This document shows positions 2,511 to 32,548 of a stretch of DNA of 56,323 nucleotides, in pieces (positions within the stretch are counted from its first letter, which is position 1; each line of letters opens with the position of its first letter). The translations under genes and the position numbers were made by a program. The DNA is from a virus. Location: positions 1 to 56,323 of IMG/VR virus record IMGVR_UViG_3300046788_000223; one strand, written 5' to 3'. The notes beneath the pieces are model-generated. The model was not told the origin of the DNA and made no database searches. It saw nothing but the letters and a program-made list of their open reading frames with translations.

Positions 2511-2972
2511 ATGTCGATATACCCATCAGCTAAGCGTAGGCTGCTTGCGGGACTTTCACCTGAGCCGAACTCTGGATGTTGGTTATGGACAGGCTACATT
2601 CGCCCACATAATGCCTATGGCGCTATTTGGGCGGAAGGCAGATCTCAGCAGGTTCACCGATTGGCTTATGCCCTATTTAAGGGGCCGATCCCTGACAATC
2701 TATGCGTTCTTCACAAATGTGACACTAGACTCTGCGCCAATCCGGATCATTTATTTCTCGGTACTCAGACCGACAACATGCGCGACTGCTGGCTTAAAGG
2801 CAGACATACCGGCCAGATACTGATGCGCTTAGAACGATGCAGGCGGTGTGGCAACGAAAAAACAAAAGAAAACACGGTCATTAGGCGAAGCGGAAGAGCG
2901 GAATGCATTCCTTGCAGAAATGCAGACAACATGAAATATAGGGCTCGAAGGAAATCCAGATCCGCTTTATGA
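2511..2972 (+). CDS. HNH homing endonuclease
   Basis: CWLWTGY..YG, VHRLAY, HKCDTRLCANPDHLFLGTQTDNMRD and a C-terminal CxxC..CxxC. This is the classic HNH_3 pattern. Confidence 0.85.
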   Translation: MSIYPSAKRRLLAGLSPEPNSGCWLWTGYIRPHNAYGAIWAEGRSQQVHRLAYALFKGPIPDNLCVLHKCDTRLCANPDHLFLGTQTDNMRDCWLKGRHTGQILMRLERCRRCGNEKTKENTVIRRSGRAECIPCRNADNMKYRARRKSRSAL

Positions 2973-3251
2973 TGTTGGCTTCTTCTGCTCCCTCAACAAC
3001 ACCCGCAACTCCTCATAGCATGCGCTTCGATACGCACTGGCGATCCGATGCGCTTGCTTGAATGCAAGCCTATCCTTGGCCGCCGCTAAGTCCGTTATGT
3101 CCTCATCTGGGAGCGTCGGCGCTTTTGGCGTTGGCCGTTGCGCTGTGTCGCAATGCAATGGGATCTCTGGGAGGTCTTGGGTCACATAGATCGGCGCTTG
3201 TTGAGTGGCGCAACCTCCCAACAGCAGGAGCAACATCAGGCCGCGAGTCAT
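2967..3251 (-). CDS. Outer-membrane lipoprotein spanin (o-spanin)
   Basis: Lipobox LLLLGGC near the N-terminus. 94 aa. A 4-nt overlap with the upstream i-spanin-like gene. Sits at the end of the lysis cassette. Confidence 0.7.
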   Translation of the reverse strand: MTRGLMLLLLLGGCATQQAPIYVTQDLPEIPLHCDTAQRPTPKAPTLPDEDITDLAAAKDRLAFKQAHRIASAYRSACYEELRVLLREQKKPTS

Positions 3252-3637
3252 TTATTAAGTTCCTGCGCTACCTTACGCGGGAAACAAATCACCCTGCCTT
3301 GCGGATTGCATTGATGATCAGCTAGCTTTTTCTCGAGACCGTTTATGATGCCTTCGCTGACATCAAGCTCCTGAAGCAAATCTTTCTCGGCTCGAGCACC
3401 GATTGCCGTCGCCTGTTTTTCGGCCCGCTGGCGCAATAGCAGTTGCTGAACTCTGGCATTTGCCATTTGCGTTGCCATTTTGGCCCGCTCCTCTTGCCGG
3501 GCATCTTCCCGAAGCCACCAGAAACCGAGGCCGAGTCCAACGAATATGATGACGGCAACCGTAACAATAGCGACAGCCTGGGCGGCGATGCCTGAGAGCT
3601 TTTGGAGCCACCATGCGCCGGAAAGGAGGGCGATCAT
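3248..3637 (-). CDS. Inner-membrane spanin (i-spanin)
   Basis: N-terminal TM segment followed by a charged coiled-coil region. Lies immediately upstream of the lipoprotein gene. Confidence 0.65.
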   Translation of the reverse strand: MIALLSGAWWLQKLSGIAAQAVAIVTVAVIIFVGLGLGFWWLREDARQEERAKMATQMANARVQQLLLRQRAEKQATAIGARAEKDLLQELDVSEGIINGLEKKLADHQCNPQGRVICFPRKVAQELNK

Positions 3638-4680
3638 TGCTCTTGCGATGTTGGAGATGGTTGCGAGAGAATACTTGCTAGAGTTGCGCCGCCCACTGGA
3701 GCTGCGGCAGCCAACCCATACTTCCTCAGTATCTCTATGATCTCAGGAGACCAGACGACGTAATTGCTTGAACCCTCGCCCTTAGCTCTTGACCCCTGGT
3801 CTAGGTAGCGGATGCCGGGGATGCCGGCTTCACGAAGCGCCTCAACCGCTCCGACGCCAGGGCCTTCTGGATGGTGAGAACTGGCTTTCTCGAATGACTG
3901 ATAGTGCGCTTCTCCAGCATTCTCCGGACGCAGCGGAACTTTGTAACCTGTAACGCCCTGCAATTTTCTATAGGCGTCCTGAAGCTGCGCAGGCTGCCCG
4001 CTCAGCGGCTTATCCCAGTCCAGGAATGACTCTGGTGAGGCGTGAAGGGCGACTTCGTACATCTTGCCGGGCGAAATCTGAGGAAGCTGCTGACCCCGCT
4101 CAAGCGCCGCCGCTGCCGTTCGCAACCTTTGCGCATAGCCTGGATCTGCAAGCCTATTACGCTCGGCTTTCGCGCGGAGCTCCACAATGGCCTTGGCTGG
4201 ATCTCCGCCAACGTCATGCAGCGTTAGAGCGCCCTGATGTCGCCAGTCGTATTCGTCAAACGGCTTTCCCCCTACGATGTTGCCAGCCAGATTGTCGCGA
4301 TAGCCTTTCGCAACTGGCTCATGCTCCGCAAAATACAACCCATGCCCATAGGCTTGGGCTCCTTCTCCGGTGCCGATCTTGGATAGGTCGAAGGCATCGA
4401 AGTCATGGGGAGAGCCGTGATAGGCTTTGATTGGATTGGGAACACGAACTGGAGCGCGCGGCCCAATGAGGCCCGCCAACACATCCATAGCTCCCGAAGG
4501 CAGGCGACTGGCTAAAGGCTCGTTAAAACCTAAGGGACTCTGAATAGGCCCGCCGGGCGCCGACCGAACCTCAGTGTAGTTAGGGTTGACCGTATCCCCT
4601 TCCACGGCCTGCCGGACAGGCGATCGGTAAGTCATCGCCGGATCAAGACCAGCCAGGATCCGCGCCAAATCGTCAGACAT
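3634..4680 (-). CDS. ADP-ribosyltransferase-fold (PARP-like, H-Y-x) protein of the polyvalent-protein type
   Basis: AYHGSPHDFDAF...GEGAQAYGHGLYFAEHEPVAKGY resembles the HGS / GxGxYFA NAD-binding signature. It is followed by MYEVALHASPESFLDWDKPLSGQ. Assignment is by eye only. Confidence 0.45.
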   Translation of the reverse strand: MSDDLARILAGLDPAMTYRSPVRQAVEGDTVNPNYTEVRSAPGGPIQSPLGFNEPLASRLPSGAMDVLAGLIGPRAPVRVPNPIKAYHGSPHDFDAFDLSKIGTGEGAQAYGHGLYFAEHEPVAKGYRDNLAGNIVGGKPFDEYDWRHQGALTLHDVGGDPAKAIVELRAKAERNRLADPGYAQRLRTAAAALERGQQLPQISPGKMYEVALHASPESFLDWDKPLSGQPAQLQDAYRKLQGVTGYKVPLRPENAGEAHYQSFEKASSHHPEGPGVGAVEALREAGIPGIRYLDQGSRAKGEGSSNYVVWSPEIIEILRKYGLAAAAPVGGATLASILSQPSPTSQEQ

Positions 4681-5503
4681 GCTTTCTGCGCCAAAGCCAA
4701 GTTGTAACAGCGCCGAATAAGGCTAGAGCACCGACCCAAACCAGAGGCTCTTGCAAAGCCGCTAAAACGAGCCCTGAGAGGGTGAACTTGCCGCTGGCTG
4801 TATACCTAGCCACGATACCCGGACCGGCCGCCACAAGCCCTCCTGACCCCCCTAGCGTTAATCCTGCTTGGGTGGCGAGGGGAGGGGCTGGGTTTTGGGC
4901 TGGCGCACGGCCTTGGGAGGCTGCTTGGAGGTCCGGATCGGGGTTTGGCTTGGGTAAATCGGCCGGGGGCACAAAGGCGATTATATTGCCAGCCGATGCC
5001 ATGGCGGCGTGCTCGATGCCGTCGCATCGGCTCATCCAGCCTCGGCCGAAATACTGGAACGTGCTCAAGCTGCGTAGGTAGGCGCGGCGAGCATCCATGT
5101 ATTTCGCGATCAGCCCGTGCACATCTCCGGATTGATGAACCGCGTCGATGGTTTGGGTTCCCATGTGGCCATCGGCCACAATGCCTAGGCACTGCTGCAG
5201 CTTGCGAATAGCCGTCACAGGGCCTGAATTTATGCCGAAGTCGTTGGTTGCCAGATCCAGCCCTGGCGGCAATTCATCGGCGCGAACCGGCATCCAGTAG
5301 GAGGAGCGGTAGATATCCCTTAGCTCATCCTCTGAAATGTTGCGCACCGTTTGCGTCTGCAAGCCGCGTTTCCGCCTATAGGCATCATATTCTTTCTGGA
5401 TGATGCCCTTCATGGTCGCCCCACCGGGGTCGTGGGCATCATTAGAAAAATTGCCTTCCCATTTAAGGGTCTCGGCAAGGCAAGCGCTGAAGCGATCCAC
5501 CAC
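4673..5503 (-). CDS. Endolysin: GH108 lysozyme-like domain + PG_binding_3-like domain, with a C-terminal TM anchor
   Basis: TLKWEGNFSNDAHDPGGATMKGI is the GH108 signature. ADGHMGTQTIDAV looks like a peptidoglycan-binding motif. The C-terminus LVWVGALALFGAVTTWLWRRKHV is hydrophobic. Confidence 0.8.
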   Translation of the reverse strand: MVDRFSACLAETLKWEGNFSNDAHDPGGATMKGIIQKEYDAYRRKRGLQTQTVRNISEDELRDIYRSSYWMPVRADELPPGLDLATNDFGINSGPVTAIRKLQQCLGIVADGHMGTQTIDAVHQSGDVHGLIAKYMDARRAYLRSLSTFQYFGRGWMSRCDGIEHAAMASAGNIIAFVPPADLPKPNPDPDLQAASQGRAPAQNPAPPLATQAGLTLGGSGGLVAAGPGIVARYTASGKFTLSGLVLAALQEPLVWVGALALFGAVTTWLWRRKHV

Positions 5504-7182: not shown

Positions 7183-7803
7183 TTACTTAGTCGTGAATGT
7201 CCCGGTCATCTGCGGTCGCAATAGCGACGCTGCCCAAGGCTGCTGCGGCTGTTGGGGCTGGGTCTGAGTGCCCTGCTGGGGCTGGAAGATGTTTCCTATG
7301 GGCGTGGGCTGCTGTTGGGTCTGCGCGCTTGGGGCGGCAAACGTCCCAGTGGCTTGGCCGCCCAAGGCGGTTGGCGGCGGCGCTGGCTGCGTGACCTGCC
7401 CGGGCAGTTGGACCGGAGGCGCTTGGGTTGGGCTATTGGCAAAGGTGCCAGTCATTTGCCCGCCAGTTGGCGCTTGCGCTGGGGGCGGCGCCATAGGAAC
7501 CCGCCAAGGCATCATGGGTTGCTGAGTTCCGAGTGGAGTTTGGCCGCCTTGGCCCATCTGTGGTGGCGGCTGAGTGCCCGTGATAGGGCTCTGGCCTATC
7601 GGAGGCTTCTGGCCCGTGCCGGTGCCGCCCCAAGGCTCCCTAGGCATTCCCCAAGGCATTTGGCCGCCACCTCCGGTTGGAAGGCCGCCTTGGGCGAACC
7701 TCTGCCTGAACTGCTGTATTCGCTGCATCCAGTCGTTCGGATTTTGACCTCCGGACGCGAGCGTGTTGGCTAGATCGCCGAAGGGATTTGGATAGCCTGC
7801 CAT
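7183..7803 (-). CDS. Pro/Gln/Gly-rich low-complexity protein
   Basis: 206 aa. The motif GGQ(M/A)TGTFA appears three times. Compositionally extreme. Confidence 0.55.
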   Translation of the reverse strand: MAGYPNPFGDLANTLASGGQNPNDWMQRIQQFRQRFAQGGLPTGGGGQMPWGMPREPWGGTGTGQKPPIGQSPITGTQPPPQMGQGGQTPLGTQQPMMPWRVPMAPPPAQAPTGGQMTGTFANSPTQAPPVQLPGQVTQPAPPPTALGGQATGTFAAPSAQTQQQPTPIGNIFQPQQGTQTQPQQPQQPWAASLLRPQMTGTFTTK

Positions 7804-14792: not shown

Positions 14793-14999
14793 TTACCCGC
14801 CGACTAATCCGGTGTTCTGGCGACGTTGGAGCCAAGTGACTAGGGTTGCCACTTGCGAATTGGTCAAGGCCACCTGCCCGCGATCTGCCGCCATGTAGAC
14901 CATCATCGATCCATCTGGGCAGCGGCTGACCCGCAGCACATCGTCATTGGCCGAAACCTCGAAAGTCGTCTCGTTCTGATGTGCAATATGCCCCATCAC
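14793..14999 (-). CDS. Hypothetical protein
   Basis: 68 aa, tightly coupled to both neighbours. Confidence 0.5.
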   Translation of the reverse strand: MMGHIAHQNETTFEVSANDDVLRVSRCPDGSMMVYMAADRGQVALTNSQVATLVTWLQRRQNTGLVGG

Positions 15000-16621
15000 A
15001 TAAACGCTCCGGTCTCATAGAGGGTCATAAACCCGTTGATGCGCATTATTTCGTTGGTTCGGCTAGATGCGCCCCAGGTCGCCGACCCCCACGTGCCTAT
15101 GCCCCATTGGCCAATCGATACGGTCGTGCCGGTCTGGGCTTGAAACTTGACGCTAGCGAAGCGCCCCAACGCCGGACTAGATGTCCAGTCATTGACGTTG
15201 GCGTCAGTAGAGCTCCATTCCGAGCTGTCCCATGTCGAGCTATCCCACGTCGAGCCAGCACCCGTTGCAGACGACGGGCTAGATAGGCTTGAGGTCTCGA
15301 CAAAGTCCGTTGAAATGCCGACAGATGGACGGTTCGGCGAATTCACCGTAATCATCGGCTGAAGCATGGTGAACCGCTTCAGATTTCCAGGCGAGTTGAA
15401 CGCCTGATACGCAGCCTGTCCCGTGCATGTGATCGGCGTAAAGAGGTCTAGCGGCCCAACGTCGGCCTTGTAGACCCGCCCATTGTTGGCGCCGAAGTAG
15501 AGGTTGTTGTTGTAGATCGCCCAGCAGTTGGCGTTGTGGCTGTCGAATTCACACCATGCGCCCGTCACCGTGTTCATGACGTATTGCTTGGCGGCGGCGT
15601 TCTCGGATGTTGGAATGTTGACAACGAGGCGCGTGCCCTGCGGATAGACGATGGGCTGCCAGCCGAAGTTAGATCCGTAGCTAAAGGCCGCTTGGTTGAA
15701 GCTGTTGGCAATGAGGGCCGAAAGGGACTGGAATTTGATCTGCGCTTGGTCAACGCCGCCCAATACCTTGCTCATGGGGATCACGCCATCTAACGTGAGA
15801 ATGAGCAAGTCGGCGCCGAGCTTGGTAAAGCATCGCCGTCCCAGAGGCGTTCCCACATTGAAAACGCCCACGAGATCCCAGGTCGTGGCGCTAGATGGAT
15901 CGGTTCCTTGATAGACGGACAACTGTCCCTGACTCGATATAAAGATCGTAAAGTCGTCAGCGCCGGCGCCACCGTCACGCGTCCAGTTTGCCGTGGCTAC
16001 CAGATACCCGCCACGATCAAACGTCGCACCGACATCAAACTGAGTAGCGGCCCCAGCAATTGCATCAGTTGGCAGATACCAAGCGGAGGTCGTGCCAGAC
16101 TGGACGAACCAAAGACGATGCTTGTGCAGGTTTACGTTGATAAAGTTGGCTGAACTCGCGCCGGTTATGCTGGGCGTGCTCCAGACGGAGCCATTGTAAT
16201 TCCGGACGCTATCAGCGCCATTGCAGATGACGAGGAACGCGCCGGCCGCCGTCGTCATGTTCGTGTATTGCCAACGGGCATTGCTTAGCCCGGTCACGGC
16301 AGACGTAGCAACGGCGTTGCTGCTCACATCGTAGATGGCCGTAGAGGCCGCCGCAAACATCTTCTGCGAGCTCGGCCCGTTCCAGACCATCAGGCTCTCG
16401 ACCGAGGTCGAGGACGTGCCGACTTCCCAGGCCCAATTGTCAAAGCCGTTTCTTGCTTCCCCATATCCTGGCTGGGGAAACCAGTTCTTGAGCTGGACGG
16501 CGCGCTGCGGGTCCATGATCGCAAGCGCCGAGGTCGTGTCCCATCCCTGCACAGGGAACGGAACCGGCGCCGGCTGCGAAACAGCTTGCCGCGTTGTGTT
16601 TGGTATCAGCGCCTGGAGCAT
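14996..16621 (-). CDS. Tail structural protein (nozzle / tubular-B-like by position), beta-rich
   Basis: 541 aa. N-terminus VQGWDTTSALAIMDPQRAVQLKNWFP, then repeated W/F/G-rich beta-type segments. Flanked by fibre and adaptor-like genes. Confidence 0.4.
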   Translation of the reverse strand: MLQALIPNTTRQAVSQPAPVPFPVQGWDTTSALAIMDPQRAVQLKNWFPQPGYGEARNGFDNWAWEVGTSSTSVESLMVWNGPSSQKMFAAASTAIYDVSSNAVATSAVTGLSNARWQYTNMTTAAGAFLVICNGADSVRNYNGSVWSTPSITGASSANFINVNLHKHRLWFVQSGTTSAWYLPTDAIAGAATQFDVGATFDRGGYLVATANWTRDGGAGADDFTIFISSQGQLSVYQGTDPSSATTWDLVGVFNVGTPLGRRCFTKLGADLLILTLDGVIPMSKVLGGVDQAQIKFQSLSALIANSFNQAAFSYGSNFGWQPIVYPQGTRLVVNIPTSENAAAKQYVMNTVTGAWCEFDSHNANCWAIYNNNLYFGANNGRVYKADVGPLDLFTPITCTGQAAYQAFNSPGNLKRFTMLQPMITVNSPNRPSVGISTDFVETSSLSSPSSATGAGSTWDSSTWDSSEWSSTDANVNDWTSSPALGRFASVKFQAQTGTTVSIGQWGIGTWGSATWGASSRTNEIMRINGFMTLYETGAFM

Positions 16622-18561: not shown

Positions 18562-19268
18562 GCTGCCGCCTCTGCCTTAGCCGGACGTCCGCGCTTCCTA
18601 GCTACTGCCGGAACCGCCTCGTCTAGCTCTTTCTCGGCATCTCTTGCGCGCTTGTCGGAGTCAGCTTGAGCCCTGCGAAGCTCCTCAAGCTGCTTCCTCA
18701 GCTCATCAAGTTGGGCTTTGCTCTCATCGAGATCGCGCACGGCGATCGCCACGTCCTTGGTCTCGAGGTATTTCCTGGCGCGCTCGCGATAACGAACCAT
18801 GTTCGGGTTCGGCACTCGGTTTAGGACGTCATCCTTGGCAATCGACAGGTCCTCGACCGTGTAGATACGGAACGGCTTCAAGGCCTCCACGACATCGCGG
18901 GTCACAGCCGGCCAGATCGATAGCGGCATCCCGTTGGTGATGGCGTCGGCCTCGCCGCCAGCCTTCCAATTATCATAGAAGGGTTTGATGGCCCGCCACT
19001 TCGCGGCGTACTCGTCGTCAGGCTCCGTTGCCTTCTTGGCGGCGCGCTCGATCTTATGGATTGGCTCGACAACCGTTGCCGGGATGGTTACGCCCTTCTT
19101 GGCCCAGGTCACATATTCCCTGGCGATGAGCTTGGTCGGATCGTTCGGGTCGGGCAGATATCGAAGGAAGAACGCGATAGGCTGGATGGACGCCGTAGCC
19201 TCCTTGCCGCCTTCCATCGGGATCATCTGCATTGGCATAGGTGCGCCGCCGCCTACCATGGCATTCAT
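18558..19268 (-). CDS. Hypothetical virion-module protein with a C-terminal coiled coil and basic tail
   Basis: 236 aa, coupled to the upstream glycosyltransferase gene by a 4-nt overlap. Confidence 0.55.
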   Translation of the reverse strand: MNAMVGGGAPMPMQMIPMEGGKEATASIQPIAFFLRYLPDPNDPTKLIAREYVTWAKKGVTIPATVVEPIHKIERAAKKATEPDDEYAAKWRAIKPFYDNWKAGGEADAITNGMPLSIWPAVTRDVVEALKPFRIYTVEDLSIAKDDVLNRVPNPNMVRYRERARKYLETKDVAIAVRDLDESKAQLDELRKQLEELRRAQADSDKRARDAEKELDEAVPAVARKRGRPAKAEAAA

Positions 19269-19969
19269 AGAGATTTCTCCGCTCGTTTACGTGCTAGTCG
19301 CTCAGTCAAAGTAAGCTTTGGCGGCTCCGGTTCGTACGTGACCGCGCCGCCAGATCTCCAAGCCAGTTGCGCCCATCGGGCTGCTTCGTGTGGCTTTGGA
19401 TCTCGCGTGAAGTAGATGAGGCGCGCGTCTTTGGGTGGTCCGGCCTCACACTTGTGGAACTTGTACTGGTAGAAGCCGCCGAACTGTCGCTGGAGGCGTA
19501 ATGCCCTGGACTGCGTTATCTTGTCGATCCACTCATCGTCGCCGTTCCCCAGGATCGGCTGGGCGGCTTTTAGCCATTCCGTCCATATGAAGTCGCATTC
19601 GCCCGCCTGCCACGCCATGACCCCCGACGAAAAGATTCGATTACGGCGAGCACAACCGAGACCAGCAAAAGCGCCAGCATAGTTCGCAAGATCGTCAAGG
19701 TTGGCAAGCAGCAGGCTATCAAGATCGAGATATAGAACCCGGCCACGGAAAACGCCTGGGCAAAACAGAAAAAGCTTACACCACCACCCGAAGGCGTTGG
19801 GCTTTGGTATGACTCGGATGTCCGGGGCAAAGCCAAGGGGATTGTCCGTGATGCATGCAAACTCAAACGGCACGGTTATCTGCTTCTTGCAAGCGAGGCG
19901 TAGATTGTTGACGTACTCGGCTTGCCGCTTGCAATAGTTGTTGACCGCAACACAGGCGATCGTCAGCAC
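19265..19969 (-). CDS. Soluble nucleotide-sugar glycosyltransferase-like protein (GT-A/GT8-like), paralogue of 20999-21589
   Basis: WWCKLFLF and YLDLDSLL (D-x-D) motifs. No TM segments. Confidence 0.45.
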   Translation of the reverse strand: MLTIACVAVNNYCKRQAEYVNNLRLACKKQITVPFEFACITDNPLGFAPDIRVIPKPNAFGWWCKLFLFCPGVFRGRVLYLDLDSLLLANLDDLANYAGAFAGLGCARRNRIFSSGVMAWQAGECDFIWTEWLKAAQPILGNGDDEWIDKITQSRALRLQRQFGGFYQYKFHKCEAGPPKDARLIYFTRDPKPHEAARWAQLAWRSGGAVTYEPEPPKLTLTERLARKRAEKSL

Positions 19970-21002: not shown

Positions 21003-21589
21003 TGCGTCAGTCCTTCACCTGTCCAGTGATTTTGGAACCAGCGGGCCGTGATCTGGTGAGGCCTTGGCGACCCATGGCATATGCACGCAATGGCACCTGG
21101 GGGCGGCTCATCCAGCGTAAAGAGCCGATGGACTTTCCAGCTTGGAAACCATGTTGGAGGGAATGTTGCTGCGCCAGGCATGGCCACGTTTAGCCAGTCT
21201 TGATCGCCTCGCATTGTGGCCATGACGCCGGGCGTGAACCGCGACCAAACGTCCGTTTCCCAGCCAGTCAACTTGATGACGGAGGTATTGTAGCCTTTCA
21301 ACCACGGATTTTTCAGCGTTCCAAAGCCTTGCCATTCCAGCAGCGGCTGCAAACTTCCTAGGATCACGATATCTAGGTCCAGACAGATCAGCGGCTGGCC
21401 CAGCATATAGGCGCCAATTTTACACCACCATTTCGGCAGATCGACCGGCAATGGCCTGCAATCGACGCCGGGAACCGGATCGTTGGTGAAGCAGACCAAG
21501 TCTTGGTCGCTGTGCCGGCGTACGCCGTCTCGCAGTCGCAGGACGTATTCATTCCCGAACTTCGTCCCGGTCTTGAAACAACAGATCAT
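20999..21589 (-). CDS. Soluble nucleotide-sugar glycosyltransferase-like protein (GT-A-like)
   Basis: PKWWCKIGAY, CLDLDIVI (D-x-D) and GDQDWL motifs. No TM segments. Confidence 0.45.
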   Translation of the reverse strand: MICCFKTGTKFGNEYVLRLRDGVRRHSDQDLVCFTNDPVPGVDCRPLPVDLPKWWCKIGAYMLGQPLICLDLDIVILGSLQPLLEWQGFGTLKNPWLKGYNTSVIKLTGWETDVWSRFTPGVMATMRGDQDWLNVAMPGAATFPPTWFPSWKVHRLFTLDEPPPGAIACICHGSPRPHQITARWFQNHWTGEGLTQ

Positions 21590-23316
21590 GCAGCCGTGTG
21601 CAGCATTGGACTACCTGGAGCCACGGCTTTACCGCTAGCCGCCAGCTCCGAATGCATGCGGATCATGCTTTGGAGCAGGCCAGTCCCATAGAGCTGGATA
21701 TCGACCCCAACGCTCATGCGCTGGATCATTTCAACGAATTCCGTCGCATAGCCAATGAGCACGAGGCTTGTGTGGAAGATTTCGCCCTCGACGGTCGCGA
21801 TCTTCACAACCTCCTGGCTCAATCCAGCGTGCTTCCCAGCCCATTGCTCCTTGCCTTCGTCGGCAAAGCTGCAATCCATCCCGTAGATGTGGTACTCGCG
21901 ATAGCCCATGGCATAGAGCAGGGAGATTGCCCGCAGCCCTACCGAGCCGCCGCCCGTGACTATGAGCTTGCCTGGTTCTTTGAGCTCCTGCAGGAACTTG
22001 GCGATGTGCTCATCGGTTGCGATATGCCAGAGGGCAACGTCACCACCCTCCAGCTTATCGAACATCGCTGGATGGCATGCACTCCCGATCAGATATTGCA
22101 CTTCGGAATGCCATGTCCCGATGTTGTCCGCTTTGTGCGCGCGGGGGTCGCATTCGACGTGATACTTTGGGACAATCCCTGAGTAGATCAGGAAATCATG
22201 GCTTCCGGAGACCGAGATAACGTCAGCATCCTCGGCCTGCGCCTGATACCTCAACATCCCGAGATTGTCTTTGATCGATGGCCCATAGCAGGCAAGGATT
22301 GCCTTGCGCTTGTGGGCTGGGCCTACAAGGACACGCTTGGGGATACGGGCACACGCTGCCTTGGCTTGCTCCCAGCGCTCTTCGCTGGGCCTGGCGCCGA
22401 CCATCTTGACGCCTGCGACGCCTACTCTTGGTGTGCCAATGACAACAAGCTTATCCTCGTCAACCTGCCAGTTGCCAATGCGCAGGATGCGCTCAAACAA
22501 TGGTCTCCAATACTCCTCCGTGCGCTCCTCAGTAAGCTGGACGCGGGCTAGGTAGACCTTGCGGGTATAGCGAAGAGCATCGAGGATCTTGGGCTTGGGA
22601 TCTTCCGGGCCATCAAGGATGTCCGCCACTATCTGTAGATCAGCCAACCTGTCGTTGTACCCTTCCCACATGCTGATGCTCTCTATGGAGCTCATCGCAT
22701 CGGAATGCGCCTCCATCTGCACTCTAACCATCTCACAGAAGGCGGAGACTTCCGGCGTCATGCGGCGACGCTTGGATGTGAGCTTGGGCGCTCCCTTGGG
22801 CACCGCTTCGCCATAAACGAAGTGGTTGGAAATGGCCCGGTCGCCCCAAGAGATGATGTCAAATAACCTGGACAGCTTTTCTCGCCACCAGTCCCCCGAC
22901 TCAACGATCAGGTGAGCGTTGCGCCCGTCTGATAGTGTCTTGAAGGCTGGTTGAGTGCAGATATCGAAGAACAGCTTGCGCTTGGTGATGCGAGCCAATT
23001 CGGCCAGCACATTGTCCAGCAACTCAGGTTCGACGTGCTCGAGCACGTCCAGACAGACCACTAGATCGGCCGGTTCAGGCTGCGTGTCTTTGCCAGCGAT
23101 AGCCGGATCGTATTCCGCGACCGAGATCCCTGCCCTTGATAACGTTTTAGCAAGCGTGCCTTTGCCAGATCCATAGTCAAGGATGGTTTCGTGCTTGTCT
23201 TCAATGACGAGTTGTTCGACATAGGCGGCCCATTGCATTCCTTTGGAGCCGAAGCCAGCATAAGCCTCGTGCATCTCGCGGTTTTGCTGCGCGTACGCTT
23301 CCGTTATCAGAGTCAA
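21586..23316 (-). CDS. Fusion protein: class-I SAM methyltransferase + DUF115/MptE-like (Maf-type glycosyltransferase) domain
   Basis: N-terminus has ILDYGSGKG and VVCLDVLEHV. The C-terminal half has ACYGPS, VSGSHDFLIYSGIVPKYHVECDPR and GGSVGLRAISLLYAMGYREYHIYGMDCSF. Confidence 0.55.
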   Translation of the reverse strand: MTLITEAYAQQNREMHEAYAGFGSKGMQWAAYVEQLVIEDKHETILDYGSGKGTLAKTLSRAGISVAEYDPAIAGKDTQPEPADLVVCLDVLEHVEPELLDNVLAELARITKRKLFFDICTQPAFKTLSDGRNAHLIVESGDWWREKLSRLFDIISWGDRAISNHFVYGEAVPKGAPKLTSKRRRMTPEVSAFCEMVRVQMEAHSDAMSSIESISMWEGYNDRLADLQIVADILDGPEDPKPKILDALRYTRKVYLARVQLTEERTEEYWRPLFERILRIGNWQVDEDKLVVIGTPRVGVAGVKMVGARPSEERWEQAKAACARIPKRVLVGPAHKRKAILACYGPSIKDNLGMLRYQAQAEDADVISVSGSHDFLIYSGIVPKYHVECDPRAHKADNIGTWHSEVQYLIGSACHPAMFDKLEGGDVALWHIATDEHIAKFLQELKEPGKLIVTGGGSVGLRAISLLYAMGYREYHIYGMDCSFADEGKEQWAGKHAGLSQEVVKIATVEGEIFHTSLVLIGYATEFVEMIQRMSVGVDIQLYGTGLLQSMIRMHSELAASGKAVAPGSPMLHTAA

Positions 23317-29872: not shown

Positions 29873-32548
29873 TTAGGCGCCTTCAATCCCTACTGCACGG
29901 CCATCTGGGCCTCGGATGATTACGCCAACGCCGTCCTCAGATTTGACCCCTACAGCCTTGCCGGTATGGTCGCGGATGAGGGTGCGCGGTCCCTTGGGCT
30001 TCTTGGCTGTAGCCTTGGCGACCTCTTGAGCAACGTGGGCCTGGATGTGGTGTGGCACAATCGCCGCCGCCAGCTCCTTGACGATCTTGTCAAAGCGGCT
30101 TGGCTGTGGCGGCCCCGCAGGCGGCTTAATGCCCTTGCCATCCTTCTTGGGTGCTTGCTGACCATCCGCCAGTAGTGCTTGCCATTCCTGCTCTGAATGC
30201 TGCATCTCTCGCTGGTGCTGCAGCTCGTGCGCCTTGGAGACGGCTTCCTTTTCCATCTTCACGAGATCGGAATTGTGCTCGTATTCGGCCAACGCGCGTT
30301 CGTGATTGAACTGAGCCACTTTCATGGCTTGATCATGCTGCTGCTGCTGGGTCTGCAATTGTGCCTGCACTTGAGCCTTGAACTGCTCAAGCTGGGCGCT
30401 GTTCTGCATGTCCTGTTGTTTCAATTGCGCATCAGAGGCTGCTTGCTGCTGGCGCAACTGCATATCGGCTTGGGCTTGTTGCGCTTTGAACTGCATTTCC
30501 TGATCGGCTTGCTTCTGCTGCGCCTGGAGCTTGAGGATTTCTGGGTTGGGTTGCGGAGGAGGCGGATTGAGCGCTTCCTTAGTCGCCTCGGCGCTCATGC
30601 GGCTTAGGGCGTCCTCGGCCTGCCTGCCCAGCTTGAACTTGCGGGCGAATGCCGAGAAGATGTCCATTGCGACATCTTTTTTGATAAATCCACCCATAAC
30701 TGCAGGCCCCATTGCCTGCACAAACTGAGCCGTAGCCTGGACGAACATATTGGCTTGGTTCTGGGACGCCTGAACGTCGCCCTGGATCGTGCTATCTGTT
30801 TCGACATCGATCCGATAGGAGCGCATTACTCCTGATTTCAGGGTCTCGAGGACATCCTCCCAGCTTACCTTGTTGGCGAGGTCTACCAGCTGTTGGGGCG
30901 GTTGCTGGGGTTGCGGAGGCTGCGCGGGAGGGCCGCCTTGGGGCTGCAGCGCGACCGGAGCCCCGTTCTGGCCAGGTGAGGGAGGACCTGGCTGTGGCGG
31001 CCCTCCCGGCTGGGCTGGCGGCGGTCCGCCATTCTGCGGAGGAGGCAGCATTGGCCGCCCCATTGGCGGCGGCATCATCTGTGGTGGAGGCGGCTGCTGC
31101 ATCATCTGCAGCTGCTGCTTTGCCATCATGACCTGCTGACGCGACGGGAGATTGAGGCCCGTCATCATCGAGAGGTTGTTGGAGTCAAACAGATTGCATG
31201 CTATCTCGGCCTTTAGGCGGAACAGCTCCCGACAGAAGCGCTGAACGTCCTTCTGGCCCTCCTGCATCCGCATGGTGCCCCATTGGGCCTTAATCTGTTG
31301 GGCGCCTAGGGTCTCGCTCGGATCGGTTTGGCCGCGCATGATGTCAGCGAGGCCAGAGACTTCAAAGATGGTCTGCTTGATTGACTCGCGCTGAGTGTAG
31401 AGCTGCTGGAGCACAGCAATCAGCTGGTCGATCGGCATCAACCAGACGAACTTGTCAATGCCGCCAGCCTCGATCAGCGCGCTAAGCTCTGAGCCCTCCA
31501 GAGTTGGGACGAGTTCGCCATCAACGGCTTCCTCGAGACGTTCAAACGACGGAATGGCGGGATGTCGGACGCCGCGCCATTTGCACACCCTAATCAAGGC
31601 TTGGATGCGGATGGTAATTTCTTCGAGCTCATCAACCAACGGCTTGATCTGCCGATAGGGGCAGACCGGAACCATCGTGGACGAGGTCCGGATCGCGTAC
31701 AACGGTTCCGGGACCGGATAGAACTGCATCAACCCAAGCGGATCTTGGTCGAGCCGAACCGGCCCAGCCGAATAGCTTGGTGCAATCCAGAGGATCTGGC
31801 GCGATCCCTTGTCCCAGATTTCCCAACAGCGTCCGCGTTTGAAGACGTTGGGCGCTACATCAGGCTTCAGGTTGGCCGGCTTGCCAGCTCCATCGGATAG
31901 AGAGATATCGAGCTTGATGCTTCCCCCGATCTTGGGGTTCAGCTTCATGAATTGGTCGCGGTTTAGGAAGTGCTCGAATGCGATCCATGATGCATCCGGC
32001 CACGTTATGGCTGGGCCATGAATGAAGTGCTTCCAGGGCACATGCTCGCAGACGACTTCCTGGTAAATTTTGCCCTCGTAGACCTCAGGCATATAGCGGA
32101 CGCGAGCCACGCCGCGCCCCGCTAGCTCCCTATCCTGCACAACAGCCTTAAGAACTCCGTCGAAGTTGTAGCTGTCGATGGAGTAGCTGAGCACGCGCTC
32201 AATTGCCTGCCCAGAAACCCGCGAAACCTCATCGGTCTCATTGTAGCGGGTTCGCACATCAGGCGTTGGCGTGGAGTTGTAGAGCGACGGCGCGCTCGTC
32301 TGGACGTTGCTATAGAGGATGTTGAACCGCTGATCAGTTGCGGTTTTCTCCGACCGAAAGACATCCGTTGCCTTGTCAGCCTCTTGCCGCCAGTCCTTTT
32401 CCCCGTCCTGCGCAAGCGAAATCTCGGCAAGCCAGCGCTTGACCAGGTCCTCGCTGGTCTTGTCGCTTTCTTGCTTTGACTCATAGACGCCGTCAGACAA
32501 CCCGGATGGGTTATCTGAGATGTCTATGAATTGGGAGATGCCGGCCAT
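29873..32548 (-). CDS. Portal protein with a long low-complexity and coiled-coil C-terminal extension
   Basis: 891 aa. The N-terminal half (FNILYSNVQTSAPSLYNSTPTPDVRTRY, RELAGRGVARVRY) is typical of podovirus portals. There is a PQ-rich insert and a Q-rich coiled coil. Confidence 0.75.
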   Translation of the reverse strand: MAGISQFIDISDNPSGLSDGVYESKQESDKTSEDLVKRWLAEISLAQDGEKDWRQEADKATDVFRSEKTATDQRFNILYSNVQTSAPSLYNSTPTPDVRTRYNETDEVSRVSGQAIERVLSYSIDSYNFDGVLKAVVQDRELAGRGVARVRYMPEVYEGKIYQEVVCEHVPWKHFIHGPAITWPDASWIAFEHFLNRDQFMKLNPKIGGSIKLDISLSDGAGKPANLKPDVAPNVFKRGRCWEIWDKGSRQILWIAPSYSAGPVRLDQDPLGLMQFYPVPEPLYAIRTSSTMVPVCPYRQIKPLVDELEEITIRIQALIRVCKWRGVRHPAIPSFERLEEAVDGELVPTLEGSELSALIEAGGIDKFVWLMPIDQLIAVLQQLYTQRESIKQTIFEVSGLADIMRGQTDPSETLGAQQIKAQWGTMRMQEGQKDVQRFCRELFRLKAEIACNLFDSNNLSMMTGLNLPSRQQVMMAKQQLQMMQQPPPPQMMPPPMGRPMLPPPQNGGPPPAQPGGPPQPGPPSPGQNGAPVALQPQGGPPAQPPQPQQPPQQLVDLANKVSWEDVLETLKSGVMRSYRIDVETDSTIQGDVQASQNQANMFVQATAQFVQAMGPAVMGGFIKKDVAMDIFSAFARKFKLGRQAEDALSRMSAEATKEALNPPPPQPNPEILKLQAQQKQADQEMQFKAQQAQADMQLRQQQAASDAQLKQQDMQNSAQLEQFKAQVQAQLQTQQQQHDQAMKVAQFNHERALAEYEHNSDLVKMEKEAVSKAHELQHQREMQHSEQEWQALLADGQQAPKKDGKGIKPPAGPPQPSRFDKIVKELAAAIVPHHIQAHVAQEVAKATAKKPKGPRTLIRDHTGKAVGVKSEDGVGVIIRGPDGRAVGIEGA

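Follow-up and report, generated by a model that had tools for sequence, protein, structure and literature searches.

ADP-ribosyltransferase (ART) domains of the ART-PolyVal family (Pfam PF18760) are restricted to phages and mobile elements, in which they are tied to virion-internal proteins (PMC5512222; PMC9503650). The family was defined by Iyer et al. by a His in strand 1, a Tyr in strand 2, and an Asp in strand 5 (PMC5512222). A role as a head-packaged, injected ADP-ribosyltransferase has already been predicted for its members (PMC5512222; PMC9503650), the proposal dating from 2017. T4 Alt, an ADP-ribosyltransferase made late, packaged in the head, and injected, modifies the RNA polymerase of the host among other proteins (PMC5512222). 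In cyanophage A4, gp27 and three other ejection proteins build a pre-ejectosome inside the capsid, as observed by cryo-electron microscopy (PMC12002296). Proteins identified in purified virions of Sulfitobacter phage phiGT1 include gp5 (12 spectra), for which the ratio of spectral count to molecular weight (SC/MW) was 0.29, higher than the contamination level of 0.2 used by the authors (PMC10386132, Table S3). Here, we analyze a gene located at positions 3634 to 4680 (minus strand) of a 56,323-nt stretch of viral DNA (IMG/VR record IMGVR_UViG_3300046788_000223), referred to as the window, which means this stretch at its full length. An initial annotation made from the sequence had described the product of this gene as a stand-alone PARP-like ADP-ribosyltransferase occupying the slot of a holin in a lysis cassette. 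We assign the 348-residue protein with high confidence to a long-form subfamily of ART-PolyVal containing two helical inserts, and we consider it moderately probable that it is packaged in the capsid and injected. The family is already labelled in Pfam and UniProt, so that the protein itself adds little to it, and the only unusual aspect of the gene is its placement inside a lysis block beside a membrane-anchored endolysin.

Family, fold, and active site of the 348-residue protein

The open reading frame (ORF) matched PF18760 with a score of 32.3 bits, above the gathering cut-off of 31.2 (E 2.1e-7). The match spanned profile positions 6–54 of 140 only; deletion of the inserts from the query gave 35.8 bits but did not extend this coverage. 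More than 7,800 homologues, almost all of them with a PF18760 tag, were returned by a word-indexed search, and an exhaustive profile search detected 18,616 cluster representatives (50% identity) at E≤1e-3, including 10,431 at E≤1e-30. About 24 columns were invariant over 120 homologues displaying 40–55% identity. The resemblance to ARTs is therefore not due to chance, in view of the Pfam score, the number of clusters, and the invariant columns. For comparison with the canonical short form of the domain, five examples were assembled from the virion RNA polymerase (vRNAP) of Roseovarius Plymouth podovirus 1 (RPP1), which is the family prototype, two roseophage vRNAPs, Pseudoalteromonas phage Y3, and the crAss-like phage cr130_1. 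The insert-trimmed profile of the family aligned with these five domains with an hhalign probability of 95.9% and an E of 6e-9. No homologue was returned by a word-indexed search with the prototype domain of RPP1, and NCBIfam and PADLOC scans of the ORF gave no match. Within the H-Y-[EDQ] clade, ART-PolyVal seems to correspond to the family described as ‘N4-like ART’.

The features of the gene are as follows (coordinates of the window, strand, and description).

3634 to 4680, minus: complete gene for a stand-alone ART-PolyVal protein of the long form, putatively H-Y-N, 348 residues (ATG-start ORF; Pfam PF18760; AlphaFold core; BFVD and PDB fold matches)
4441 to 4680, minus: N-terminal segment of about 80 residues, variable and predicted to be disordered (predicted local distance difference test, pLDDT, 38–68; variable columns in a 40-homologue alignment)
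4273 to 4434, minus: N-terminal half of the ART domain, residues 83–136, with the invariant Gly-rich loop GTGEGAQAYGHG (Pfam profile positions 6–54 of 140; hhalign to the RPP1 prototype and the five canonical domains)
4417 to 4419, minus: His88 of strand 1, within the N-terminal half
4333 to 4335, minus: Tyr116 of strand 2, within the N-terminal half
4300 to 4302, minus: Tyr127 of the following helix, within the N-terminal half
4072 to 4272, minus: helical insert 1, residues 137–203 (helices 146–156, 161–174, and 180–194)
3991 to 4071, minus: strand 3 and the following hairpin, residues 204–230, GKMYEVALHASPESFLDWDKPLSGQ (strand 206–212; Tyr208 and Asp223 near-invariant, Glu209 variable)
3829 to 3990, minus: helical insert 2, residues 231–284, variable in sequence (helices 231–244, 256–268, and 278–284)
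3715 to 3828, minus: three C-terminal strands, residues 285–322 (strands 289–293, 305–309, and 315–321)
3763 to 3765, minus: Asn306, the putative third catalytic residue (from its motif, matched to those of canonical domains and to NEYIVY of PARP1)
3634 to 3714, minus: Ala/Gly-rich C-terminal tail and stop codon, not transmembrane (Kyte-Doolittle maximum 1.29; pLDDT below 60)

Every motif quoted in the initial annotation was located in the ORF: AYHGSPHDFDAF...GEGAQAYGHGLYFAEHEPVAKGY, also given as AYHGSPHDFDAF...GLYFAEHEPVAKGY, at residues 86–127, MYEVALHASPESFLDWDKPLSGQ at residues 207–229, and SSNYVVW at residues 304–310. The second of these (MYEV...DWDKPL) had been associated with polyvalent proteins, in which it indeed recurs. 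The long-form subfamily extends from stand-alone proteins of 300 residues to polyvalent proteins of 7,242 residues with up to ten copies of the module, and no member consisting of a compact core devoid of inserts was found. The first insert is variable in sequence, yet it was present in all subfamily members examined and was at least 56 residues long across 300 domain copies. The ORF itself comprises one domain flanked by disordered ends and does not contain the several unrelated effector domains of a polyvalent protein, although the long-form module does occur inside such proteins. The stand-alone form, noted initially, is ordinary: the ORF does not exceed 650 residues in 64 of 73 related loci, obtained by reducing 80 IMG/VR loci and others to a non-redundant set.

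Two observations concern the architecture of other members. A 577-residue protein (locus L022, 7125–8858) contains a short canonical domain (LYHGS...EGYDSVRF...HDQIAVFD) directly before a long H-Y-N form, and the canonical and long forms therefore coexist within one polypeptide. Polyvalent proteins of 5,500–7,200 residues recovered in the representative search (P0121–P0124 and P0143) harbor eight to ten long-form copies in tandem.

AlphaFold (AF2) models had a pLDDT of 77 for the full-length protein and 86.5 for residues 80–325, with most of the core above 90. The models displayed six strands in the order of the ART core, interrupted by the two helical inserts. Foldseek comparison with BFVD, whose entries are predicted models, gave 28 matches at E<1e-3 (best E 1.5e-18). 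The leading matches were named ART-PolyVal-like or ‘large polyvalent protein associated domain’, including an ‘ART-PolyVal-like domain-containing protein’ (E 1.1e-15), and a 191-residue ‘PolyVal ADP-Ribosyltransferase’ gave a TM-score of 0.62 on the target. Against the PDB, no match of the full-length model reached an E below 1.5, and the 50 matches listed included 12 PARP catalytic domains. Informative matches were obtained only when the disordered ends of the model were trimmed. The best was then chain B of 9k3a, which is gp27 of cyanophage A4 (E 5.9e-3, probability 1.00, TM-score 0.41), and 12 of the 14 best matches were ART-fold proteins. They included tankyrase 2 (E 0.34, probability 0.72), tankyrase 1, diphtheria toxin (E 0.85), its Albireti homologue, and a RES NADase toxin (E 1.5). 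When the family alignment served as a profile against PDB sequences, only noise was obtained, without any ART match. Since 12 of the 14 best matches of the trimmed model share one fold and 12 of the 50 matches of the full-length model are PARP domains, the similarity is hard to ascribe to chance, and the models make an ART fold very likely. The assignment of the protein to an ART family in the initial annotation was thus borne out by the Pfam score, the BFVD matches, the hhalign probability, and the dominance of the ART fold among weak PDB matches.

The likeness to PARPs was retained in part. The GxYFA motif is present, but the resemblance does not extend further at the sequence level, as hhalign against the PARP1 catalytic sequence (an approximate query) aligned 11 columns around this motif with a probability of 4.9%. 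A PARP catalytic domain would be recognized by its profile relation and by a Glu in the strand of the NEYIVY type; here, motif comparison places Asn306 at the position of the Glu. In the R-S-E clade (T4 Alt and VIP2), strand 1 provides an Arg and strand 2 a Ser-x-Ser, and an ExE motif is present; here, His and Tyr occupy strands 1 and 2, and the ORF had no Pfam match to the T4 Alt and VIP2 families.

Residue conservation was tabulated for 223 proteins, which together contain 348 copies of the domain; the denominators below differ slightly, as not every copy has a residue at a given position. High conservation was observed for His88 (298/303), Tyr116 (308/310), Tyr127 (302/308), Tyr208 (300/302), Asp294 (288/296), Ser297 (283/294), Arg298 (286/292), and Asn306 (301/302, the sole exception being an Asp). 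His88 and Tyr116 align by hhalign with the RPP1 prototype and the four other canonical domains, in agreement with the initial choice of the HGS His and the YFA Tyr, which are the conserved residues of strands 1 and 2. The C-terminal strands consist of GIPGIRYLDQGSR, SNYVVW, and IIEILRKY, in this order, and Tyr292, Asp294, Ser297, and Arg298 in the GIPGIRYLDQGSR region were invariant in the 120-sequence alignment. Canonical domains keep two acidic positions in this region: the Asp within GYD[GS] and, in all five domains, an Asp or Glu with which the next strand begins. The Asp of GYDG was set opposite Pro288 by hhalign. The second acidic position corresponds by motif to Asn306 (SNYVVW compared with GEIMVV, DQISVF, QDVRIVF, and NEYIVY of PARP1). 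We infer from these correspondences that the long-form subfamily is best read as H-Y-N, with Asn306 at the Glu/Asp position. The suggestion that SSNYVVW, devoid of Glu, stands at the NEYIVY position accordingly provided the best fit, as Asn306 is kept in 301 of 302 copies and Glu209 in 223 of 302. Asp294, located 12 residues upstream from Asn306, is an alternative candidate for the third catalytic residue. A near-invariant Asn at the presumed place of the Glu or Asp normally needed by ARTs marks the subfamily.

Glu209 of MYEV was also considered as the catalytic Glu and was rejected because it is not invariant, being replaced by Gln, Lys, Asn, or His in other copies. The strand that carries it corresponds to the non-catalytic strand 3 of PARP and of canonical ART-PolyVal domains. 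Strands of the hEVh type resembling it are found in the RPP1 domain (VKEVAV) and in A4 gp27 (IHEVL).

Genomic context and virion location of the family

A portal, terminase, scaffold, or capsid gene was located at most three genes from the ART gene in 32 of the 73 non-redundant loci, and the portal gene was directly upstream in 14. In phages with a portal similar to that of the window, the ART gene adjoins the portal gene. The module was also found fused into giant proteins of the ejection slot, of 1,974 residues in vir555, after an ‘internal virion protein’, and of about 3,100 residues in LS06-2018-MD07. The family is normally housed in the head or ejection-protein module.

The protein displays 35% identity with phiGT1 gp5 (E 3e-44) over residues 3–331, and all key residues are kept. 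The alignable part includes the N-terminal region, in which the segment of about 80 residues closes with the semi-conserved LxGLIGPRAPVRVPNP and is a candidate for packaging or anchoring. Larger homologues of 560–740 residues have N-terminal extensions, which match nothing in the window, giving no indication that an anchoring domain had been split off.

An ART-PolyVal-like region was also found at the C-terminus of gp27 of Anabaena phage A-4L (9k3a chain B; L137, 20116–25269), at residues ~1420–1620, by Foldseek with the trimmed model only. It contains LYHGT...GSGTYFS...IHEVL...GVDALTDGDTTLVIN, in the same order as in the ART family. This region has no Pfam match, and an ART is not mentioned in the structure paper (PMC12002296).

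In the window, the ART gene is part of a lysis block containing the following features.

4673 to 5503, minus: endolysin of 276 residues with GH108 and PG_binding_3 domains (Pfam E 2.6e-24; PHROG 315), its stop codon overlapping the ART start by 8 nt
4715 to 4771, minus: C-terminal transmembrane (TM) helix of the endolysin, residues 245–263, a Pro-rich linker also being present (hydropathy)
3248 to 3637, minus: candidate i-spanin of 129 residues with an N-terminal TM segment at residues 21–39 (weak Rz-like PHROG match), its start codon overlapping the ART stop by 4 nt
2967 to 3251, minus: candidate o-spanin of 94 residues with lipobox LLGGC (weak Rz1-type PHROG match)
2511 to 2972, plus: HNH homing-type endonuclease, antisense, between the o-spanin and the TM protein (Pfam HNH_3, E 8.4e-14)
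2144 to 2494, minus: single-TM protein of 116 residues, TM segment at residues 73–96, candidate holin and last gene of the conserved block
2031 to 2048, minus: terminator-like hairpin and T-run after the TM protein (consensus match only, such sites being fewer than in shuffled sequence)

Both overlaps reported initially were read in the junction sequences, ...GC ATGTCTGA CG for the endolysin and CA ATGA TC for the i-spanin. An ATGA overlap also joins the i-spanin and o-spanin genes. A GH108 gene directly upstream from the ART gene was found in two of the 73 loci, the window and L002, a contig of the metagenome-assembled genome (MAG) GCA_009712145.1; L003 is a short contig with a gene identical to that of L002. 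Beyond L002 and L003, no further junction of this type was detected among 136 retrieved loci, a search that extended to GTDB genomes and to JGI metagenomes. Embedding of the ART gene in a lysis cassette, as initially reported, is thus real but confined to the lineage of the window and L002 (with L003). Products of the L002 block displayed identities with those of the window of 51% for GH108 (276 residues), 46% for ART, 52% for the i-spanin, 41% for the o-spanin, and 46% for the single-TM protein. The latter has 99 residues in L002 (10117–10416), where its gene directly follows that of the o-spanin; family searches with the 116-residue protein gave no match. The position of the ART gene between GH108 and the spanins is a lineage-specific placement that travels with a host-specific five-gene block. 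The HNH gene is absent at the corresponding place in L002, and its region has a G+C content of 0.50 compared with 0.57 for the window; it looks like a recent insertion that interrupts the block and lies outside the system.

Assignment of the ART protein to the holin slot did not hold. No TM segment was detected (maximum Kyte-Doolittle value over 19 residues of 1.29 for a threshold of 1.6), and a conserved single-TM protein of 99 or 116 residues follows the spanins in both contigs with the cassette. The Ala/Gly tail noted initially is present, but it does not span the membrane. Identity as a holin was rejected for a protein of 348 residues devoid of TM helix and with a predicted well-folded alpha/beta core. 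The protein is not a holin and most probably not a lysis protein, and it fills no missing lysis function since the block has its own holin candidate and an endolysin with its own TM helix. Homologues of this endolysin in phage databases cover residues 1–178 only, and L002 has the same 276-residue form. Endolysins with such a tail anchor are uncommon, and the anchor may be relevant to the triggering of lysis.

Candidate functions and the remainder of the window

The function that we favor, with moderate confidence for the mechanism as a whole, is that of a late-made, capsid-packaged, and injected NAD+-dependent effector. The protein would be translated late, from the distal end of the operon that groups structural and lysis genes; coupling to the endolysin and spanin genes is apparent from the junctions, and the timing is suggested by the position in the operon. 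Copies would then enter the capsid interior together with the ejection proteins, as the homologues suggest, and would reach the cell with the DNA at the next infection. There, the fold and the family point to a NAD+-dependent modification of a host macromolecule, most likely mono-ADP-ribosylation of a protein, which might favor takeover or blunt a defense in the manner of T4 Alt. Among the options listed in the initial annotation, a virion-packaged effector is the best supported, by phiGT1 gp5, A4 gp27, and the head-module context of 32 of the 73 loci.

Several observations weigh against this proposal. The ART gene of this phage is located within the lysis block, away from the portal and ejection-protein genes, and no capsid-targeting domain such as MuF was recognized in the stand-alone protein (Pfam). 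The virion signal of phiGT1 gp5 is of low abundance, A4 gp27 was matched at a modest E of 5.9e-3, and none of the PDB matches to ART enzymes is significant on its own (E 0.3–2). Asn306 presumably replaces the catalytic Glu or Asp of the relatives, which may reduce or change the chemistry, and no experiment in the literature searched shows the use of NAD+ by any family member, including this protein. Finally, the five genes upstream from the block in L002, four of which are large, have no similarity to the window (tblastn, E≤1e-3), yet the lysis block is shared, which could mean a functional link to lysis.

Such late synthesis would also suit an effector that is not packaged but acts in the cytoplasm of the producing cell, by consuming NAD+ or modifying host or defense proteins, in order to block abortive-infection responses or superinfection in the last minutes before lysis. 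We regard this explanation as rather unlikely. Translational coupling to the endolysin and spanin genes implies production at the time of lysis, but packaging also requires late synthesis. The lack of MuF or another recognized head-anchoring domain, the location of some homologues far from head genes (e.g. beside an integrase or RecT region in L099), and the presence of RES-type ART-fold NADases among the weak fold matches are in its favor, whereas the predominance of head and ejection modules in the family context, the detection of phiGT1 gp5 in virions, and the ART-like domain of the A4 pre-ejectosome argue for packaging. Somewhat less likely again is an inactive ART-like module that would not transfer ADP-ribose but bind it, NAD+, a similar nucleotide signal, or a host protein, perhaps as a structural or decoy component of the ejection apparatus. 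In its favor, the ART-like domain of A4 gp27 is located in a structural, DNA-contacting layer (PMC12002296). Apparent replacement of the canonical Glu/Asp by Asn306 in 301 of 302 copies and alignment of the GYDG Asp with Pro288 point in the same direction, and the presence of up to ten copies per protein suits binding as well as catalysis. However, His88, Tyr116, Tyr127, Asp294, Ser297, Arg298, Asn306, and the Gly-rich loop are 97–100% conserved at about 45% overall identity, as expected for an active site, and H-Y-I/L PARPs lacking the Glu still mono-ADP-ribosylate.

A genuine role in lysis appears improbable to us. The ART enzyme would regulate or trigger lysis, through a collapse of NAD+ and membrane potential releasing the tethered GH108 endolysin or through modification of a lysis or envelope protein. 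The five-gene block encoding GH108, ART, Rz, Rz1, and the TM protein is conserved (40–53% identity) in two contigs with the dissimilar upstream genes of L002; the 8-nt overlap between the GH108 and ART genes is conserved, the C-terminal TM anchor of the endolysin is unusual, and a few other homologues are found near lysozyme genes (L004 and L005). Nevertheless, 355 nt separate the ART and i-spanin genes in L002, the protein has neither TM segment nor signal peptide, and its homologues are found in virions or within ejection proteins. Conservation of the block as a unit is the single finding that sustains a lysis-linked role, which we rate low mainly because GH108 adjacency is limited to two of the 73 loci and because lysis cassettes are commonly exchanged as whole blocks, with which a neighboring gene can hitch-hike. 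It is equally doubtful, to the point of being remote, that ART operates within a portable lysis module of five genes, its NAD+-consuming or protein-modifying activity setting the time of lysis, for instance through membrane de-energization and the resulting release of the tethered endolysin; if true, lysis would be triggered enzymatically, in a manner without described precedent. For the packaged effector that we favor, the wider interest is the abundance of the long-form subfamily, which with 18,616 clusters is one of the commonest uncharacterized activities that phages bring into cells. The 348-residue stand-alone version, with a homologue detected in virions, is far more tractable for biochemistry than the giant polyvalent proteins.

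The window, which corresponds to an entire JGI contig of 56,323 bp, also encodes a large terminase, an 891-residue portal, a major capsid protein, a tail protein, and a tail tubular protein B of the P22 gp10 type, the genes for which are all located on the minus strand. The ejection-protein slot contains several large unannotated proteins followed by a fibre-like protein. The nearest relatives of the portal are those of Mx8, Brucella Tb/Pr phages, and Rhizobiales phages, and tail tubular protein B also matches Sulfitobacter phage phiGT1. On the basis of these relatives, the phage is assigned to the P22-like, Mx8/Pr-type podoviruses. The few genome matches of the ART ORF were to alphaproteobacterial MAGs, and the host is probably an alphaproteobacterium. 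Tail tubular protein B is the 541-residue protein encoded at 14996–16621 (minus), which matches PHROG 5107, ‘amidase / lysis’, with an E of 6.5e-121 but is a homologue of the P22 gp10 ‘phage stabilization protein’ (phiGT1 and relatives). The ‘amidase’ label of PHROG and RefSeq appears to be a propagated mis-annotation, which leaves GH108 as the only muramidase identified in the window. Phage-database homologues of the portal (29873–32548, minus) align with its first ~470–650 residues only, and the window portal therefore has a long C-terminal extension. Between the capsid and tail genes are a glycosyltransferase-like gene (19265–19969, minus; PHROG 1962) and a gene for a 576-residue protein with a methyltransferase-like N-terminal region (21586–23316, minus; PHROG 24759). 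A 206-residue protein (7183–7803, minus) consisting almost entirely of Gln/Pro/Gly/Thr low-complexity repeats, without family match, is encoded between the ejection-protein-sized genes and the fibre-like gene.

Comparison with known systems

At the family level, the closest known system is ART-PolyVal itself, with the domain of the RPP1 vRNAP (CBX87992.1) as its prototype. The 348-residue protein shares with this family the strand order, the xYHG[ST] motif of strand 1, the GxY/F-F-[AT] motif of strand 2, and the Tyr of the following helix, all of which align. It differs from canonical domains by helical inserts of about 65 and 55 residues, by an invariant GTGEGAQ loop, and by Pro288 and Asn306 in place of the GYDG Asp and the strand-opening Asp or Glu, respectively. 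It also stands alone, whereas the prototype domain is fused to other domains. Gp5 of phiGT1 is a full-length stand-alone homologue found in virions, and phiGT1 shares its type of tail tubular protein B with the window phage. The Mx8/Brucella-Pr group, into which the portal of the window falls, was placed in the ancestry of phiGT1 (PMC10386132). In contrast to the gene of the window, however, that of gp5 belongs to the head module, two genes after the portal, and not to a lysis block.

Gp27 of cyanophage A4 (9k3a chain B) provides the best match among solved structures, with LYHGT...GTYFS...IHEVL in the same order and a capsid-internal location in the pre-ejectosome. It differs in being a multidomain structural protein of 1,717 residues with about 13% identity, in which the depositors do not describe an ART. 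PARP, tankyrase, and diphtheria toxin of the H-Y-E clade were the top non-phage fold matches and share the His, the Tyr, and the second Tyr. In addition, SNYVVW-SPE-IIEILRKY may be likened to NEYIVY-DIAQ-VNLKYLL of PARP1. The corresponding fold matches had E values of 0.3–2, Asn would replace the catalytic Glu, and the 348-residue protein has no PARP regulatory domain. T4 Alt, the packaging mechanism of which is known, belongs to the R-S-E clade and has no family-level homology with the protein, for which it may nonetheless serve, by analogy, as the functional model.

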